This document shows positions 6,287-42,231 of a DNA stretch of 42,231 bases, in pieces (position 1 is the first letter of the stretch; each line of letters starts with the position of its first letter). Below the pieces are notes generated by a model. The model worked only from the letters and a program-made list of their open reading frames with translations. It did not search any database and was not told the origin of the DNA. A program made the position numbers and the translations under genes. The stretch is taken from the IMG/VR virus record IMGVR_UViG_3300037419_000866, positions 1 to 42,231 of that record, one strand, 5' to 3'. This DNA is from a virus.

Positions 6287-6315
6287 ATTTTAGGCATGCC
6301 TAAGCATTTGTGCAA
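6287..6315 (-). promoter_or_regulatory. PL-like early leftward promoter
   Basis: The minus strand reads TTGCAC (6310-6315), a 17-nt spacer, then TAAAAT (6287-6292). The palindromic operator 6290-6303 overlaps the -10. Confidence 0.65.
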
Positions 6316-6408
6316 GCAAAATCTTCGGCATACCTAAAATCGTGGCTTTTGAAACGGGGGGTAGGGGTTTTGCAGAGAGTGGCCACCTAAGTCGTTAGGT
6401 ATGCCATG
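6290..6408. promoter_or_regulatory. Left operator cluster, three sites
   Basis: 6290-6303 is TTAGGCATGCCTAA, a perfect 14-bp palindrome. 6324-6337 is TTCGGCATACCTAA and 6395-6408 is TTAGGTATGCCATG. The same motif recurs three times to the right of the repressor gene. Confidence 0.75.
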
Positions 6409-6418
6409 CTGACTGGCG

Positions 6419-6442
6419 AAAAAAAGCCCGCTCGAGGCGGGC
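6419..6442 (-). terminator. Rho-independent terminator of the repressor/moron transcript
   Basis: The minus strand reads GCCCGC-CTCGA-GCGGGC followed by TTTTTTT. It lies 24 nt after the stop of ORF 6466..6753. Confidence 0.75.
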
Positions 6443-6465: not shown

Positions 6466-6753
6466 TTACAAAGTACGGGCCACGGCATACAGGGTCATCA
6501 GTGCGATCTCAACGATAAATGCGAATAGCATCAAAATTAGAAAGTGGAATCGATCAAAAAACCGGATGTACGCCCGGCCAGCCGAAGCTAGGCCAAAGAC
6601 GCCACCCCAAAACAGTAGCAATGCAATTGGACTCAGGACCATCTTGAATCTCACAAGTGCGGCATCCAGGCGTGCCGTTTCGCCGCTCGTAAATACGTGT
6701 GTGTCGCTATAAAATGCAGATCGTTTTACAGGTGTAAAAGTGGCATACCTCAT
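6466..6753 (-). CDS. Membrane protein moron (95 aa, two C-terminal TM helices) in the rex-like position
   Basis: Track ORF. The hydrophobic stretches are MVLSPIALLLFWGGVFGLASAG and FHFLILMLFAFIVEIALMTLYAV. The segment is visibly AT-richer than its surroundings and has its own terminator. The RBS is weak. Confidence 0.6.
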   Translation of the reverse strand: MRYATFTPVKRSAFYSDTHVFTSGETARLDAALVRFKMVLSPIALLLFWGGVFGLASAGRAYIRFFDRFHFLILMLFAFIVEIALMTLYAVARTL

Positions 6754-6773
6754 TGTCGGACACTAGAAAAAAC

Positions 6774-6793
6774 TACTGTATAGGTGTACAGTA
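6774..6793. promoter_or_regulatory. LexA (SOS) box TACTGTATAGGTGTACAGTA
   Basis: Exact CTGT-N8-ACAG with TA flanks, embedded in an 11-bp perfect inverted repeat (AAACTACTGTA / TACAGTAGTTT). It lies between the divergent starts 6753 (-) and 6822 (+). Confidence 0.8.
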
Positions 6794-6821
6794 GTTTAGC
6801 GTTCTGAACTTGGAGGGAACC

Positions 6822-7025
6822 ATGCACCGACAGGATGACTTGACCATGATGTTCGAAGCTATCGACGACGACAGCCGCCGCTATGTCCTTGCCGTACTTC
6901 GCGGCGAGTACGAGCGAACCATGACCTCATCGCGCCCGCGACTGCGCCTGGTCAAAGGTGCCAACTCGGTTGCGGATCTCGCGAATAACCAGATCAATTC
7001 GCGCTCGGTCCGCGGGGCCGGCTAA
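6822..7025 (+). CDS. Small acidic ORF (67 aa) downstream of the SOS box, convergent with the repressor gene and overlapping its 3' end by 99 nt; antirepressor candidate
   Basis: ATG at 6822 is preceded by GGAGGG at 5-nt spacing. In the non-overlapping 35 codons my hand count gives GC3 about 74%, GC1 about 63% and GC2 about 34%, a coding-like gradient. No other ORF occupies 6754-6926. Confidence 0.5.
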   Translation: MHRQDDLTMMFEAIDDDSRRYVLAVLRGEYERTMTSSRPRLRLVKGANSVADLANNQINSRSVRGAG

Positions 7026-7364
7026 GCGATACGTCTCGACCATGTCTACGATTGCCTTCAGGACTTCATCCGCTGCCCTAGCTTGGCCCTGGTCGTCGAC
7101 TGGAGGTATCGGCGCAGCCTCAGAATCGATCTGACGCGGCGCTGTTCCAGGCTTCCCATGTAACAGCCAGTGCGGATCAATCCCAAGAACCTCGCTGGCA
7201 CGTGTCAGCTTGGGGCCGGATATCTCCTTGATCCCTCCTGAGTCAACACTCTTCTCCCAATCGGTCGCAGTCGCATTCGATACGCCTACGGCAGCAGCGA
7301 ATGCCGTCTTAGACATCTCCTTGGCGATGCGTGCCGCCCGTAATCTTTGTTTCCAATCTTCCAT
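6927..7364 (-). CDS. cI: CI-type prophage repressor, XRE-family HTH, with no S24 peptidase domain (145 aa)
   Basis: The N-terminal HTH is MSKTAFAAAVGVSNATATDWEK. The gene is flanked by the operator clusters and is divergent from the cro-like gene. The C-terminal 70 aa are too short for, and lack, the Ser/Lys autocleavage module. Confidence 0.8.
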   Translation of the reverse strand: MEDWKQRLRAARIAKEMSKTAFAAAVGVSNATATDWEKSVDSGGIKEISGPKLTRASEVLGIDPHWLLHGKPGTAPRQIDSEAAPIPPVDDQGQARAADEVLKAIVDMVETYRLAGPADRARIDLVIREIRNRVGTFDQAQSRAR

Positions 7365-7433
7365 TAGGCAATCCTAAACAAATTTCATTTAGGTCAGCCT
7401 GAAAGTGCTTGACAGCTTTTCAGGTATGCCTAA
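7364..7433. promoter_or_regulatory. Right operator cluster, three sites
   Basis: 7364-7377 is TTAGGCAATCCTAA and abuts the repressor ATG. 7389-7402 is TTAGGTCAGCCTGA. 7420-7433 is TCAGGTATGCCTAA and overlaps the PR -10. Confidence 0.75.
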
Positions 7434-7437
7434 AAAT
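7409..7437 (+). promoter_or_regulatory. PR-like early rightward promoter
   Basis: TTGACA (7409-7414), a 16-17 nt spacer, then TAAAAA/AAAAAT (7431-7437). The operator-over-the-(-10) design mirrors PL. Confidence 0.7.
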
Positions 7438-7443
7438 GGAGGT

Positions 7444-7662
7444 ATGACTACCCCTCTCACCGATAGCCAAATCATCGACGCCCTGGGCGGAACCAGCGAA
7501 ACCGCGCGGCTCTGCGAAGTTCAGCCGGCATCGGTGTCCGAATGGCGCAAGACCGGAATCCCCAAGGCGCGACTGATGTTTATCCGTCTTGCCCGGCCCG
7601 AACTCTTCAACGCTTCCGCGCCGCGCCGCCGAAAGACCGACAAGGCAGCTGCCACGTCCTAG
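7444..7662 (+). CDS. cro: Cro-like repressor (YdaS/Cro-type HTH, 72 aa)
   Basis: ATG at 7444 follows GGAGG. The pattern ALGGTSETARLCEVQPASVSEWRKTGIPKAR is typical of Cro/YdaS-type HTH proteins. It is the first gene after PR. Confidence 0.7.
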   Translation: MTTPLTDSQIIDALGGTSETARLCEVQPASVSEWRKTGIPKARLMFIRLARPELFNASAPRRRKTDKAAATS

Positions 7663-12559: not shown

Positions 12560-12808
12560 ATGAATATTTACACCCGCCAGTTCGTGGCCATGTGCCCGAA
12601 CAACAACGAGTCGATCATCTACAACCTGCGCATCGAAACGCTCGATCGCATGATCCACGTCGAGCACATCGTAACTGCCACGGCGCTCATTAAGCAGGGG
12701 TACCACGAGCAGATCGCGGACGAGCTTCATCGCCGCTTCGGCGGCCGTCAGGTGCTGCGTGCGCACCACCACGGTGTCGACATCGAGACGATCCGGGAGT
12801 CGGCATGA
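12560..12808 (+). CDS. QueF-like T-fold mini-protein (82 aa)
   Basis: QFVAMCPNNNESIIYNLRIE aligns by eye with the QueF segment xFTSLCPxTGQPDxxxxxIxY (catalytic Cys), and GYHEQIADEL aligns with the QueF motif FHE(D/Q)C. The predicted beta-beta-alpha-alpha-beta-beta length fits one T-fold unit. It overlaps the next gene by ATGA. Confidence 0.45.
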   Translation: MNIYTRQFVAMCPNNNESIIYNLRIETLDRMIHVEHIVTATALIKQGYHEQIADELHRRFGGRQVLRAHHHGVDIETIRESA

Positions 12809-13566
12809 TCCATTACCACGGTCTGCCCATCACTCCGGCAACAGCCGCTGTGCGGGCGGTCAGCGGCGGCCATGCCTTCGTATCGTTCGCTCGGCCAGAT
12901 CAACTGACCATCGCACTGGAAGCAGCGCAGACCTTCGCCGTCGACAACGGCGCGTTCTCAGCGTGGCGCAGTGGGAGCCCGATCACGGACTGGTCGCGCT
13001 TTTACGATTGGGTGCAGGAGTTGCACCGGTACCCGCCGTTCGACTTCGCCGTGATCCCCGACGTCATCGATGGCAATGAGGCGGACAACGACGCGCTGCT
13101 GGCCGAATGGCCGTGGCGCCTGACTGCCCCGCACATCGGCGCGCCTGTGTGGCACCTGCACGAGTCCCTGGACCGCCTAGACCGCCTAGTCAGCCAGTGG
13201 CCGCGCGTGTGCCTGGGCAGTTCGGGCGAGTTTGCCCAGATCGGCACGCCAGCATGGTGGGTGCGCATGGCTCAGGCCATGGACGTCGTGTGCGACCGCT
13301 CCGGGCGCCCAGCTGCAAAGCTCCACGGCCTGCGCATGCTCAATCCGGATGTGTTCACGCGCTTCCCGTTTGCCTCGGCCGACAGCACGAACATTGCACA
13401 GAACATCGGCATCGATTCGGCCTGGCGCGGCACGTACACCCCGCCGACCAAGGAGGCGCGCGCGGCGCTGATGCGCGAACGGATCGAATCGCAGCAGTCC
13501 GCGATCTTTTGGGACCGCAAGGCTGCACCGATCCAAAGCCCGCTTTTCATGGAAGCGACAGCCTAA
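12805..13566 (+). CDS. TGT/DpdA-like transglycosylase candidate (253 aa)
   Basis: FAVDNGAFSAW resembles the TGT DxGGF substrate-Asp motif and FASADSTNIAQN resembles the FD(S/C) nucleophile-Asp strand. It starts with IHYHGLPITP, has no CxCxxC zinc site, and sits in the nin-like region. Confidence 0.45.
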   Translation: MIHYHGLPITPATAAVRAVSGGHAFVSFARPDQLTIALEAAQTFAVDNGAFSAWRSGSPITDWSRFYDWVQELHRYPPFDFAVIPDVIDGNEADNDALLAEWPWRLTAPHIGAPVWHLHESLDRLDRLVSQWPRVCLGSSGEFAQIGTPAWWVRMAQAMDVVCDRSGRPAAKLHGLRMLNPDVFTRFPFASADSTNIAQNIGIDSAWRGTYTPPTKEARAALMRERIESQQSAIFWDRKAAPIQSPLFMEATA

Positions 13567-34732: not shown

Positions 34733-36841
34733 ATGCTCCCAGTCGAACAACCCTTCAAGACCTACACCGGCATCGACGGCAAGCCGCTGACCGACGGATC
34801 GGTGTACTTTGGCATCGCCGGCCAAGACCCGATCACGCACCCGGTGACGGTGTACTGGGACGCAGCCGGTACGCTGCCCGTGTTCCAACCTGCACGCACC
34901 GTCAACGGCTACATCGTCAACGATTCCGGATCGGCGGCGAACGTGTTTTACGACGGTGCCTACTCGACATCGGTGATCGATTCCAAAGGGCGGCAAGTTT
35001 TCTATGCGCAGACGTCCGACAGCTTCAGTATCGGTGCAACCGTCCTTGGTCTCAGTAAGCCAGGCGGCGGCACGCAGATCGGTTGCATTTTGTCGACCAC
35101 TGGCGCGCGTCAACGCAACGTCACTGATAAAGCATTCGAAACAGTCAGCCTGGATGACTTCACCGGCGTCGATCCAACCGGCGCGACCGACTCGACGGCG
35201 GGGGTGCAGGCCGCATTCACATGGCTTTCGGGTGGTAACCGCAAACTGATCGGCACACCCGGCGCGTCATACAAGGTCAGCGCCTCGATCCACTTGGCCG
35301 GCAACAGCGTGTGTTTCGATGGACGCGAGTGCATCATTATCAACGCGATCAACGGCCCGGGAGGTGGCGCGGCTGATCCGTTGATCGCCCTGACGACCAC
35401 CAGCGGCAATTTCAACAAGATCAAGAACTTCCAGGTTCAGTACGACACCCCGGCTAACAAGGGTCATACGATCTCGATCATCGGCAACGGCCAGAACCCG
35501 CAGGTGACGGTCATCCGCAACGTGCGCCCGAATTACCAGATCGGTCTGGGCAAGGATCACAACGGCGCATCGATGGCGGCCTACACCGTCTATGCGTACG
35601 GAGTGTATTCGGTCTACTGCGACGAGGTGTACGCACAGAACGGAAGCGGCGGTCTGTACTTCGACACGGTGCAGAAGGTCTCCGCGCGCCGCTGCGTGAT
35701 CGACAGCGCGGCCAACTGGGGCATGTACTTCGACGGCTGCGCGAGCGTCATGGTGACGGACATGAACAACCTGACCGGCTGCGGCCAGGATGCGCAAGCG
35801 GCGGTCTACTACAACAACTGCGAGTGCTTCGTCTTCCGCGGGAACCGGGTCAAGGGTGGCCTGGGCGCCGAGATCATGTCGGGTGTCACGCCGTCGCGCA
35901 GCGTCACGATCGCCGACAACCACCTCGAGATCTACACCGCCAACAAGAATGCGATCTACGCGAAGACCAACACGGATTCGCTGACGATCGAGAACAACTA
36001 CATCAAGTTCATCGGTGGGAATGGTCCGTTCAATGCCGCCGTTTGCATTGACGATGTGGGGGTAGCCACGCAGGCCCGCAGCGCGATTGCCATCCGCCGC
36101 AACCGCGTCGTCGTCGGCGGTGCGGAAACGCTGGGCAACGGCGTGTTGCTGACCACCGCAACGGACCAGATCAACGGCGCCATCGTCGAGTCGAACACTT
36201 TCGGCGGCCCAGGCGTGGCAGCCATCATCACGAACGCGATCAACTTCGCGTGCACCGGTACCGGGAACCGAGCCACGAACAACACCATCGGATCGGCAAA
36301 CGTCACGGTGACGAATGGCGTGGTTCTCGGCGCTGGAGCGACGAACACCATTGCGAAAGACAACCCGACCGGCGGCGCCGTGACGAATCCGCTCGTGAAC
36401 AACGGCACCGGCACGCGCCGCTACCTTTCCCAGGACATCGTCCCAGTCCTGAAGGGTAAGACGACCGCAGGCACGAACGCGTACAGCAAGCAGCTGGGGA
36501 CCGTGCGCATGGTCGAGGACGTCGTGCACTTCACGGCCACCGTCCAGCTCAGCTCCCTTGATGCGTCGCTGAATGGCTTCGCGGTGATCGAGTTGGACAG
36601 CACGGCGCTGGGCATACCGAAGGCCAAGAACAGGGCCAACCAGTTTTTCTCCGTCTCGCTGTCGAACGAGGTGTTCAACACGCCAGCAGGTTGCATCGGC
36701 GTGAAGGCATACATCCAACCCGGCACGACCGAGGTCTGGTTCGCATTCACACAGGCGAACGCGGCGGCTGTTTCCGCGACCCAGGCGCACGTCACGGCCT
36801 CGTTCTTCGTGAGCGTGACTGGCTCGTATATCGCAGGCTAA
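34733..36841 (+). CDS. Tailspike with a pectate-lyase-like right-handed beta-helix (polysaccharide depolymerase candidate)
   Basis: It has an N-terminal particle-binding-type motif YTGIDGKPLTDGSVYFG...VYWD and FTGVDPTGATDSTAGVQAAF (Pectate_lyase_3-like). Multiple NN/GN-rich repeats are typical of beta-helix coils. Confidence 0.8.
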   Translation: MLPVEQPFKTYTGIDGKPLTDGSVYFGIAGQDPITHPVTVYWDAAGTLPVFQPARTVNGYIVNDSGSAANVFYDGAYSTSVIDSKGRQVFYAQTSDSFSIGATVLGLSKPGGGTQIGCILSTTGARQRNVTDKAFETVSLDDFTGVDPTGATDSTAGVQAAFTWLSGGNRKLIGTPGASYKVSASIHLAGNSVCFDGRECIIINAINGPGGGAADPLIALTTTSGNFNKIKNFQVQYDTPANKGHTISIIGNGQNPQVTVIRNVRPNYQIGLGKDHNGASMAAYTVYAYGVYSVYCDEVYAQNGSGGLYFDTVQKVSARRCVIDSAANWGMYFDGCASVMVTDMNNLTGCGQDAQAAVYYNNCECFVFRGNRVKGGLGAEIMSGVTPSRSVTIADNHLEIYTANKNAIYAKTNTDSLTIENNYIKFIGGNGPFNAAVCIDDVGVATQARSAIAIRRNRVVVGGAETLGNGVLLTTATDQINGAIVESNTFGGPGVAAIITNAINFACTGTGNRATNNTIGSANVTVTNGVVLGAGATNTIAKDNPTGGAVTNPLVNNGTGTRRYLSQDIVPVLKGKTTAGTNAYSKQLGTVRMVEDVVHFTATVQLSSLDASLNGFAVIELDSTALGIPKAKNRANQFFSVSLSNEVFNTPAGCIGVKAYIQPGTTEVWFAFTQANAAAVSATQAHVTASFFVSVTGSYIAG

Positions 36842-38530: not shown

Positions 38531-38560
38531 ATTATACTGTGCGTTCATACAGTATTTCAT
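38531..38560 (-). promoter_or_regulatory. SOS-regulated promoter: LexA box TACTGTATGAACGCACAGTA (38535-38554) overlapping a TATAAT -10
   Basis: The minus strand reads ATGAAA (38555-38560), an 18-nt spacer, then TATAAT (38531-38536). The CTGT-N8-ACAG box fills the spacer and runs into the -10, the same layout as the E. coli recA promoter (TACTGTATGAGCATACAGTATAAT). Confidence 0.65.
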
Positions 38561-38567
38561 CGCGAAC

Positions 38568-38864
38568 ATGTACGGAAAAGTGAAGCGGCTCCGCGACCAC
38601 GGTCGGCGCTTGTCGAACCGAGAAATCAACCAGATGCCGGCCGTCGAAGGCGCGCTCACGCTCGCCGCGGTGCGGTCGACCTATGTCCTTGAGATCCGGC
38701 GCCACGATTCGCAGGTCGGGCCCGGCCTGCTGCCAGCGCTGTACGAGGCACGTCTCGTGGCCATGCACACGGGAGGCATGCTGTTCAGGGGCGAAGAGCG
38801 GCCGCAGGGTGACGATGGGCCGGCGTACGTGCAGGAGTGGTCGGTGATGGTCGAGCCAAAATAG
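38568..38864 (+). CDS. Hypothetical moron protein (98 aa)
   Basis: My hand count gives GC3 about 82%, GC1 about 72% and GC2 about 44%, which supports the plus frame over the antisense ORF 38532..38768. The codons upstream (TTA TAC TGT ... ATA CAG TAT) are atypical, so the start was placed at ATG 38568. The RBS is weak. Confidence 0.55.
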   Translation: MYGKVKRLRDHGRRLSNREINQMPAVEGALTLAAVRSTYVLEIRRHDSQVGPGLLPALYEARLVAMHTGGMLFRGEERPQGDDGPAYVQEWSVMVEPK

Positions 38865-41827: not shown

Positions 41828-42231
41828 GCTCCCCCCTGCGTCTTGGATTGGGACATAGCGGCGAGATCGCTCGCGCAGAACGCACACATCGCCGGGCCAC
41901 CGCAACGGGCTTTCAGACCGTTGGCGTTCGGATAGACATGACCATGGCCGCAGTCCTGCGGCTTCGCATCCTGCTCGGAGTGCGCAGCAGGGGCAGGAGC
42001 GGCGAGCATCGAGACGAAATGCTCGAACTGCGGCACGGTGAAGACCATCTTTCCGTGGTAGTCGGTATCTGCGCCGCATCGACGAAGGGCATCCTTCACA
42101 GATACGGCAGGCGCTCTGGCCTGCTGGGCGACGTATGGAACGTACCAGACGCCTTCGTGCAGGATTGCGGTGCTCGGATTAGGTGGCGCGTCTTGCGCAC
42201 CTGCGCGACCCGGCACATGCGGCCAGTTCGT
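41824..42231 (-). CDS. Ead/Ea22-like protein, 3' part (continuation of the ORF that starts at 1138; 42105-42231 duplicates 1-127)
   Basis: It is in the same frame across the circular junction. The C-terminus carries a Cys/His cluster, DCGHGHVYPNANGLKARCGGPAMCAFC. Confidence 0.8.
   Translation of the reverse strand, partial: TNWPHVPGRAGAQDAPPNPSTAILHEGVWYVPYVAQQARAPAVSVKDALRRCGADTDYHGKMVFTVPQFEHFVSMLAAPAPAAHSEQDAKPQDCGHGHVYPNANGLKARCGGPAMCAFCASDLAAMSQSKTQGGA
42105..42231. repeat. Terminal overlap, copy 2 (identical to 1-127)
   Basis: Exact 127-nt identity with the window start. Confidence 0.95.

Follow-up and report, generated by a model that had tools for sequence, protein, structure and literature searches.

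How is a prophage induced by DNA damage when its repressor has no domain with which to cleave itself? The question is raised by a locus in the virus record IMGVR_UViG_3300037419_000866, which was analysed over its whole length of 42,231 nucleotides (hereafter the window). At this locus a perfect SOS box, the putative binding site of the host repressor LexA, precedes a small open reading frame (ORF) of 67 amino acids (aa), and this small ORF converges on and overlaps the gene for a 145-aa CI-type phage repressor (Table 1). We propose that the small ORF probably encodes a LexA-repressed antirepressor, predicted from sequence to strike the C-terminal oligomerisation hairpin of CI and to be aided by the transcription that runs into cI. 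A first-pass annotation of the letters had suggested that the ORF, and/or the convergent transcription unleashed by release of LexA, is the induction switch. Our analyses support this suggestion, as every element that could be examined in silico held: the conservation of the box, the selection on the coding sequence, and an exchange with the Peptidase_S24 (S24) autocleavage domain.

We identified a Pfam HTH_3 domain at aa 8-67 of the repressor, which also matches several PHROG repressor families. The Pfam search returned no Peptidase_S24 match in the protein, and its 145 aa compare with 230-250 aa in S24-bearing relatives. Its earlier description as an XRE-type helix-turn-helix (HTH) repressor with no room for S24 is thus upheld. 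We classify it as a CI-type repressor because copies of the 14-bp palindromic operator TTAGGYAWKCCTAA stand in triplets at the right (OR) and left (OL) operator regions. The six copies delimit the immunity region, and outside them a scan of the window for operators with up to three mismatches found a single site, with three mismatches, at 36608. The AlphaFold2 (AF2) model of CI contains a five-helix HTH domain followed by the antiparallel helices 91-114 and 117-143, with predicted local distance difference test (pLDDT) values of ~87-93. Foldseek searches with this model retrieved P22 C2, 434 Cro, SinR/SinI (1b0n_A) and AimC (9iaq_B); the scores for SinR/SinI and AimC are weak (E 0.007-0.07) and are driven mostly by the HTH domain. 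Searched alone, the C-terminal domain has no relative in Pfam or PDB.

Reading of the sequence confirmed an exact CTGT-N8-ACAG LexA box at 6774-6793. Specifically, TACTGTATAGGTGTACAGTA agrees with TACTG(TA)5CAGTA at 17 of 20 positions, the three mismatches all being central, and no other site in the 42-kb window attains this number of matches. The shorter pattern CTGT-N8-ACAG occurs twice in the window, compared with 0.32 expected occurrences. This pattern is reported to be the LexA consensus of most Betaproteobacteria (cited in PMC6595937). The 11-bp perfect inverted repeat reported around the box is also present, with the arms AAACTACTGTA (6770-6780) and TACAGTAGTTT (6787-6797).

The module formed by box, small ORF and repressor was found in 12 related phage or prophage contigs, and a thirteenth contig ends at its edge ahead of the box. 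Eleven loci were aligned, and the repressors of the closest seven are 65-78% identical. Locus searches were run with alignment A4, since the full family alignment, A3, contained too much diversity for this use. One of the module-bearing genomes is that of the isolate Massilia sp. PDC64, and both small-ORF relatives among species-representative genomes belong to Massilia (Oxalobacteraceae). The host group of the phage is Massilia-type soil bacteria (Oxalobacteraceae).

Across the 11 loci, 17 of the 19 positions from 6775 to 6793 are invariant, within a region whose mean column identity is 49%. An ATG followed by a 67-codon ORF is present in all of them (in most with a GGAG-type ribosome-binding site, RBS), and the distance from box to ATG is 28-34 nucleotides (nt) in nine. 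The corresponding features of the window were as annotated, with GGAGGG before an ATG at 6822, 28 nt past the box, and a 67-aa ORF at 6822-7025. The overlap between small ORF and repressor gene measures 96-99 nt across loci, and the box is present at the small ORF in every locus having the overlap. In L021 (2869-3001) and L022 (42-180), ~90 nt are inserted between the LexA box and the small-ORF RBS. Because of these insertions we regard the 5' leader of the small ORF as variable and the box as the part that is kept.

On the left side of the box the loci have unrelated DNA, and for this reason we assign the box to the small ORF and not to a divergent gene. The membrane-protein gene that starts at 6753, which had been named as a further or alternative target of the box, is found only in the window, L011 and L013, and its control by the box is disfavoured. 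Elsewhere the DNA left of the box carries a different minus-strand gene or an apparent plus-strand terminator.

The best universal promoter candidate for the small ORF is TAGAAA-N17-TACAGT, in which T6764, G6766 and the entire -10 element are invariant in the 11 loci. We infer from this arrangement both the position of the promoter, with a start near 6798-6800, and its occlusion by bound LexA. An element of sequence ATTGTTAAAAT lies ~45 nt upstream of the box (columns 26-36 of alignment A6) and is conserved in L008, L009, L012, L015, L017, L018, L019 and L021; it is missing from the window and L011. This element could provide the -35 (TTGTTA) of a second promoter, in which case the LexA box would lie at ~+12 to +31. 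Alternatively, it could be a promoter element of the leftward gene. Two extra CTGT-N8-ACAG matches in L012 (2728 and 5307) were judged to be due to chance, as they have no TA...TA flanks and GC-rich surroundings. A CI-operator-like sequence beside the box, at 6741-6754, was rejected because it is beyond three mismatches from the operator consensus.

The small ORF is a real protein-coding gene under purifying selection. Its codons 1-35 have a ratio of non-synonymous to synonymous change (pN/pS; Nei-Gojobori, 11 loci) of 0.34. Four of the other five frames give values of 1.26 to 2.0 over the same codons, and the mirrored antisense frame gives 0.48. The JGI gene caller predicted a 59-aa version of the ORF that is 100% identical across the part covered. 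The earlier characterization of the ORF as acidic applies to aa 1-35 (isoelectric point, pI, 4.7) and not to the whole product (pI 9.7), as aa 36-67 are basic (pI 12). In the AF2 model, which is of moderate quality (mean pLDDT 66), helices span aa 3-13 and 16-34 (pLDDT ~72-85) and the tail falls below 50. Because pN/pS indicates constraint on codons 1-44 and not on codons 45-67, we predict that the functional core consists of aa 1-44 (the two helices and an RPRLRLV motif), with the tail, aa 45-67, as a passenger. The low pLDDT of the tail in the AF2 model agrees with this assignment.

The family to which the small ORF belongs is tiny and unannotated, with 13 clusters among 5.8 billion proteins and, by profile search, 25 representatives among 1.84 billion. 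Pfam, PHROGs, PDB sequence-profile and Foldseek searches gave no significant match to the small protein. Some database members of the family, 108-109 aa long, are internal duplications of the helix-helix-RP.L.LV unit. Distant paralogues are arranged in tandem in L014 (3001-3407; a Massilia metagenome-assembled genome) and L020, with two complete copies and, in the next ORF, a related segment; neither locus has a LexA box or an overlapping repressor there.

The last 99 nt of the small ORF were confirmed to be antisense to the 3' end of the repressor gene, and the two frames are codon-aligned. Selection within the overlap is divided between them. Over codons 37-44, which encode RPRLRLV, pN/pS is 0.33 in the small-ORF frame versus 0.68 in the repressor frame, and over codons 45-67 the values are 0.89 and 0.45, respectively. 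By these values the overlap is reciprocally constrained, and the eight C-terminal residues of CI are passengers of the motif in the small protein. Repressor codon 114, which faces the stop codon of the small ORF, reads TTA or CTA, or else TCA, the last of these with a changed amino acid. TTA and CTA together account for 3% of the Leu codons in the long genes of the phage. Because these stop-preserving rare codons are kept in 11 of 11 loci, whereas at the other conserved Leu positions of these repressors TTA/CTA-type codons are used in 8 of 42 cases and vary freely, we conclude that the end of the small ORF is under selection. A scan of the plus strand from 7025 to cro revealed no intrinsic terminator-like site. 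Full-text literature searches, some of them directed at this point, found no description of such an overlapping arrangement.

The evidence that most directly links the small ORF to induction is the distribution of repressor domains. In the 11 loci, three unrelated N-terminal HTH domains share one ~55-aa C-terminal domain (…MVETYRLAGPADRxRIDLVxREIR…) together with the cassette of box and small ORF, and the subtype of the small ORF tracks the subtype of this C-terminal domain, not the N-terminal type. The HTH domain of the window (aa 1-70) is in turn found, at up to 81% identity, fused to Peptidase_S24 in repressors of 230-250 aa, for example in Telluria beijingensis. Three S24-repressor loci were inspected; CTGT-N8-ACAG is absent from them, and tblastn searches of these loci for the small ORF and for the short C-terminal domain gave no significant match (best E 0.64). 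Because the two fusions occur as alternatives, it appears that one DNA-binding head can have either of two SOS couplings, self-cleavage through S24 or the cassette. We consider this swap the strongest indirect argument that the cassette serves as an SOS-sensing or induction device.

A similar arrangement was observed in three other loci (L054 1839-2081, L055 1792-2052 and L056 453-692), where a convergent gene of 79-86 aa overlaps the 3' end of a repressor gene by 102-120 nt. These repressors are of a more distant XRE type with a related short YRLA-type C-terminal domain. In the products of the small genes two segments are predicted to be helical and a P.L(T/R)LV motif is present, but similarity to the small-ORF family falls short of significance (hhalign probability 7%). 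No CTGT-N8-ACAG occurs upstream of them; they have in common the upstream element GCATATAT.GTT.CC..GGAAAAGA. This hints that the overlapping-gene chassis is wider than its SOS-wired version, and that L054-L056 are perhaps the same chassis with another input.

In the mechanism that we propose, host LexA bound to the box of the lysogen would cover the spacer and -10 element of the candidate promoter and silence the small ORF. CI, lacking S24 and dimerised or oligomerised through its two-helix C-terminal hairpin, would meanwhile occupy OR and OL. DNA damage would generate activated RecA (RecA*), LexA would cleave itself and the small-ORF promoter would fire. We infer that the small protein, consisting of an acidic two-helix hairpin and the basic RPRLRLV, then binds the C-terminal domain of CI and breaks either its oligomerisation or its operator binding. 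The promoters pR and pL would open as a result of this loss of CI function. The small-ORF transcript would also meet cI head-on and be antisense to at least its last 99 nt, reinforcing the drop in CI. This reinforcement is probable because the transcript converges on the repressor-maintenance promoter (pRM) and cI and because the plus strand has no terminator-like site between 7025 and cro.

The LexA box, the small ORF and the C-terminal domain of CI would in this scheme form a portable SOS cassette that replaces the S24 autocleavage of sister repressors. In its strongest form, the cassette would be self-contained and able to move by recombination onto any HTH in place of S24, and dual coding would be functional in two ways, as a weld and as an antisense or collision arm. 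We put this version forward tentatively and regard it as somewhat doubtful.

Several observations weigh against a dedicated antirepressor of CI. The candidate promoter is weak, with 8 of 12 matches, and falls just under the threshold of the scanner, so that it was not called; a second possible promoter, TTGTTA-N15/16-TAnGAn, is found upstream of the box in 8 of the 11 loci. No homology was detected between the small protein and Tum, Ant, other annotated antirepressors or any PDB entry. The small protein also shows no homology to the C-terminal domain of CI (hhalign probability 0.9%), and SinI-like mimicry of that domain is rejected at the sequence level. The distant paralogues stand in tandem without a repressor and without a box, so the fold is not tied exclusively to CI. 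The linkage between small ORF and C-terminal domain is partly imposed by their physical overlap. In favour of the antirepressor, net charges of helix 2 of the small protein and helix 2 of the CI C-terminal domain covary inversely (r = -0.87, 11 pairs), but this relationship rests on only ~3-4 independent lineages and is suggestive only. In these pairs, a charge of 0 in the small protein goes with 0 to +2 in CI, 0/+1 with -1, and -3/-4 with +2 to +6. The covarying segments are not encoded opposite one another.

A further point against it is the presence of a second LexA-boxed conserved gene, ORF98, which could be the real antirepressor and carries its box in 9 of 29 loci. In the explanation built on this gene, which remains the main alternative although we consider it rather unlikely, the small ORF is SOS-induced without being an antirepressor. 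It might modulate LexA or RecA like DinI or GIL01 gp7, act on the host or mediate exclusion, and induction would proceed via another factor such as ORF98. The site of ORF98 near attP/int is the classical position of Tum/Gifsy-type antirepressors, and known LexA-controlled antirepressors sit outside the immunity region (PMC3121763); the dissimilarity of the small ORF to known antirepressors also fits this explanation. However, the box of ORF98 is facultative. It is gone in L029, which is the same phage as L008, and L008 retains the small-ORF box, as does every overlap-bearing locus. The exchange of S24 for the cassette also points to the cassette, and the more distant repressors with a short C-terminal domain again have a convergent overlapping small gene. 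ORF98 itself may be a moron induced by the SOS response, or else an alternative antirepressor.

Alternatively, the switch may operate mainly at the RNA level, with release of LexA starting convergent transcription that collides with pRM, yields RNA antisense to cI and possibly reads through into cro. The peptide would then be secondary, or its synthesis would matter only in maintaining translation of the transcript, and its resistance to Rho, up to 7025. The convergent geometry, the conserved length of the overlap and the lack of a terminator-like site before cro all suit this idea, which has a precedent in lambda, where pO has a LexA site (PMC5869508) and the OOP RNA is complementary to the 3' end of cII (PMC2327240). 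We nevertheless consider it improbable as the main mode of action. Purifying selection on the amino acids of codons 1-44 is strong, family members with the same core exist without an overlapping gene, selection fixes the position of the stop instead of merely sustaining transcription, and the type of the small ORF tracks that of the C-terminal domain. It is very improbable that the palindrome is chiefly an intrinsic terminator of cI, or an operator of the divergent membrane-protein gene, and resembles a LexA box incidentally. The palindrome was called terminator-like on the minus strand (11 pairs, U-rich tail), with a hairpin of -11.5 kcal/mol when folded by itself and -16.3 kcal/mol when folded with its surroundings (z = -3.85), and the membrane-protein gene begins 21 nt from it. 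In the relatives, however, the hairpin weakens to between -4.8 and -6.2 kcal/mol in 6 of 11 loci (overall range -4.8 to -11.5 kcal/mol) and the tail is reduced to 0-3 U in every locus except the window. The stem beyond the LexA half-sites thus decays together with the U-tail while CTGTAT...TACAG stays invariant, and on this basis a conserved cI terminator is rejected; a weak side effect is possible in this phage. An operator function is opposed by the absence of the membrane-protein gene from most loci and by the poor minus-strand -35/-10 matches.

The LexA-controlled antirepressor that we favour would have well-known counterparts. Such antirepressors serve the non-cleavable repressors of 186 (Tum), N15 (AntC) and the Gifsy phages (GfoA/GftA/GfhA) (PMC3121763). 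The locus resembles these systems in its short HTH repressor without S24 and in the strong LexA box before a small gene. Presumably it also shares with them the sequence of events from SOS through LexA cleavage and antirepressor production to non-proteolytic inactivation of the repressor. It differs in that no sequence relationship was found in Pfam, PHROGs or PDB, and in that the small-ORF cassette is passed on together with the repressor's C-terminal domain. Moreover, the genes for the Gifsy antirepressors are found outside the immunity region (PMC3121763), whereas the small ORF lies inside it, between OL and cI, and overlaps cI.

By analogy, AimX/AimC and SinI/SinR are the likely models for the molecular action. 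SinI/SinR (PDB 1b0n) works like AimX/AimC, the antagonist binding the oligomerisation domain of the repressor and preventing it from oligomerising. AimX, a small helical antagonist, is reported to bind the two-helix oligomerisation domain of AimC (bioRxiv 10.1101/2025.11.23.689978; PDB 9iaq). According to the AF2 models, CI shares with AimC and SinR the combination of an XRE HTH, a flexible linker and an antiparallel two-helix domain, and the small protein is likewise a small helical antagonist candidate. The control input differs, being LexA here as opposed to AimR or Spo0A for AimX and SinI. SinI is homologous to the C-terminal domain of its repressor; the small protein shows no such homology.

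Other comparisons concern the convergent transcript and the modular small gene. Like OOP/pO of lambda, the locus has a promoter with a LexA site whose predicted transcript runs toward a lysogeny-promoting gene and is antisense to its 3' end. OOP, however, is short and non-coding, has its own terminator and targets cII, whereas the transcript here would be coding, would target cI and has no obvious terminator. The transcription-factor-linked small ORFs (TF-smORFs) and Qtip of linear plasmid-like vibriophages (PMC10432266) are similarly modular, phage-specific orphan ORFs of ~60-80 aa, without homologues, that inactivate a cognate cI non-proteolytically. Those are SOS-independent, being switched on by quorum sensing or a divergent transcription factor, and their target is an autoproteolytic cI, whereas at this locus SOS would be the input and cI lacks S24. 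With repressors of the lambda CI, P22 C2 and LexA type the locus has in common the head, as S24 repressors from the same bacterial family carry it, and lambdoid operators, three at OL and three at OR. The S24 domain with its Ala-Gly site and Ser/Lys dyad is replaced here by a 55-aa helical hairpin and the cassette.

Overall, the locus most likely represents a known strategy in an unusual, physically overlapping form. New here are the protein family, its location in the immunity region, the conserved dual-coding overlap of 96-99 nt, and the cassette and S24 as alternative C-terminal plug-ins. LexA-controlled antirepressors are known to mediate SOS induction in a few enterobacterial phages. If our proposal is correct, this mode of induction extends to betaproteobacterial (Massilia/Oxalobacteraceae) phages with an unrelated protein, and the natural exchange of S24 and cassette on one DNA-binding domain would be an evolutionary demonstration of their functional equivalence. 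In the strongest and more doubtful form of the proposal, the overlap would also weld the antirepressor to its target domain, making the two inseparable by the recombination that shuffles immunity specificities, and a single LexA-controlled promoter would deplete the CI protein as well as its mRNA. In that form, L054-L056, which have no LexA box, would be the same chassis wired to other inputs. The overlap is also a compact case of overlapping-gene evolution in a regulatory switch, with mutual constraints and a rare-codon stop. The module comprises ~600 bp and is available in the sequenced Massilia sp. PDC64, as prophage locus L013; it could serve as a portable damage-inducible switch.

Table 1. 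Positions in the window of the features discussed, with strand where assigned
Feature	Position	Strand	Details
Putative LexA (SOS) box	6774..6793		TACTGTATAGGTGTACAGTA; core CTGT-N8-ACAG at 6776-6791
Extended palindrome	6770..6797		11-bp arms; weak terminator-like hairpin on minus strand in this phage only
Candidate promoter	6764..6792	+	-35 TAGAAA (6764-6769), 17-nt spacer, -10 TACAGT (6787-6792)
RBS of small ORF	6812..6817	+	GGAGGG
Small ORF	6822..7025	+	67 aa; putative SOS-induced antirepressor
Dual-coding overlap, tail-to-tail	6927..7025		99 nt; small-ORF codons 36-67 and stop opposite repressor codons 114-145 and stop
CI-type repressor	6927..7364	-	145 aa; XRE HTH (aa 1-70), disordered linker (aa 75-90), two-helix C-terminal domain
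Repressor C-terminal helical hairpin	6930..7094	-	aa 91-145; proposed target of small protein
OR	7364..7433		three 14-bp operators TTAGGYAWKCCTAA at 7364, 7389 and 7420
pR	7409-7437	+	TTGACA-N17-AAAAAT promoter amid OR operators
cro-like gene	7444..7662	+	matches P22_Cro and phrog_8008
OL	6287..6408		three TTAGGYAWKCCTAA-type operators at 6290, 6324 and 6395
pL	6314..6287	-	amid OL operators
Predicted membrane-protein gene	6466..6753	-	95 aa; rex-like slot between cI and OL
Strong terminator	6442..6426	-	at end of membrane-protein gene
Second strong LexA box	38535-38554		TACTGTGCGTTCATACAGTA; 15/20 to consensus; 13 nt before ORF98
ORF98	38568-38864		conserved 98-aa gene; weak match to phrog_5560; between Rz-like spanin gene and attP/integrase

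The window has an exact 127-bp terminal overlap (1-127 = 42105-42231), and we therefore interpret it as the complete genome of a lambdoid temperate phage, assembled as a circle of ~42.1 kb, with ~63% GC. Minus-strand reading frames remain open across the 1-127/42105-42231 junction. DNA comparison of the window with 50,697 deposited phage genomes gave no match, and for this reason there was no usable annotated relative. The minus-strand left arm encodes integrase, excisionase, Lar, exonuclease and NinB. The plus strand encodes cro, a replication initiator, a DnaB-like helicase, NinG, terminase, portal, scaffold and major head proteins, and an Rz-like spanin was identified beyond the head genes. 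The membrane-protein gene may be a lysogen-expressed exclusion or moron gene that is co-transcribed with cI through the region of the LexA box. The early right operon contains a homologue of queuine tRNA-ribosyltransferase at 12805-13566 (phrog_887, E 3e-73), which presumably reflects a 7-deazaguanine-type DNA modification function.

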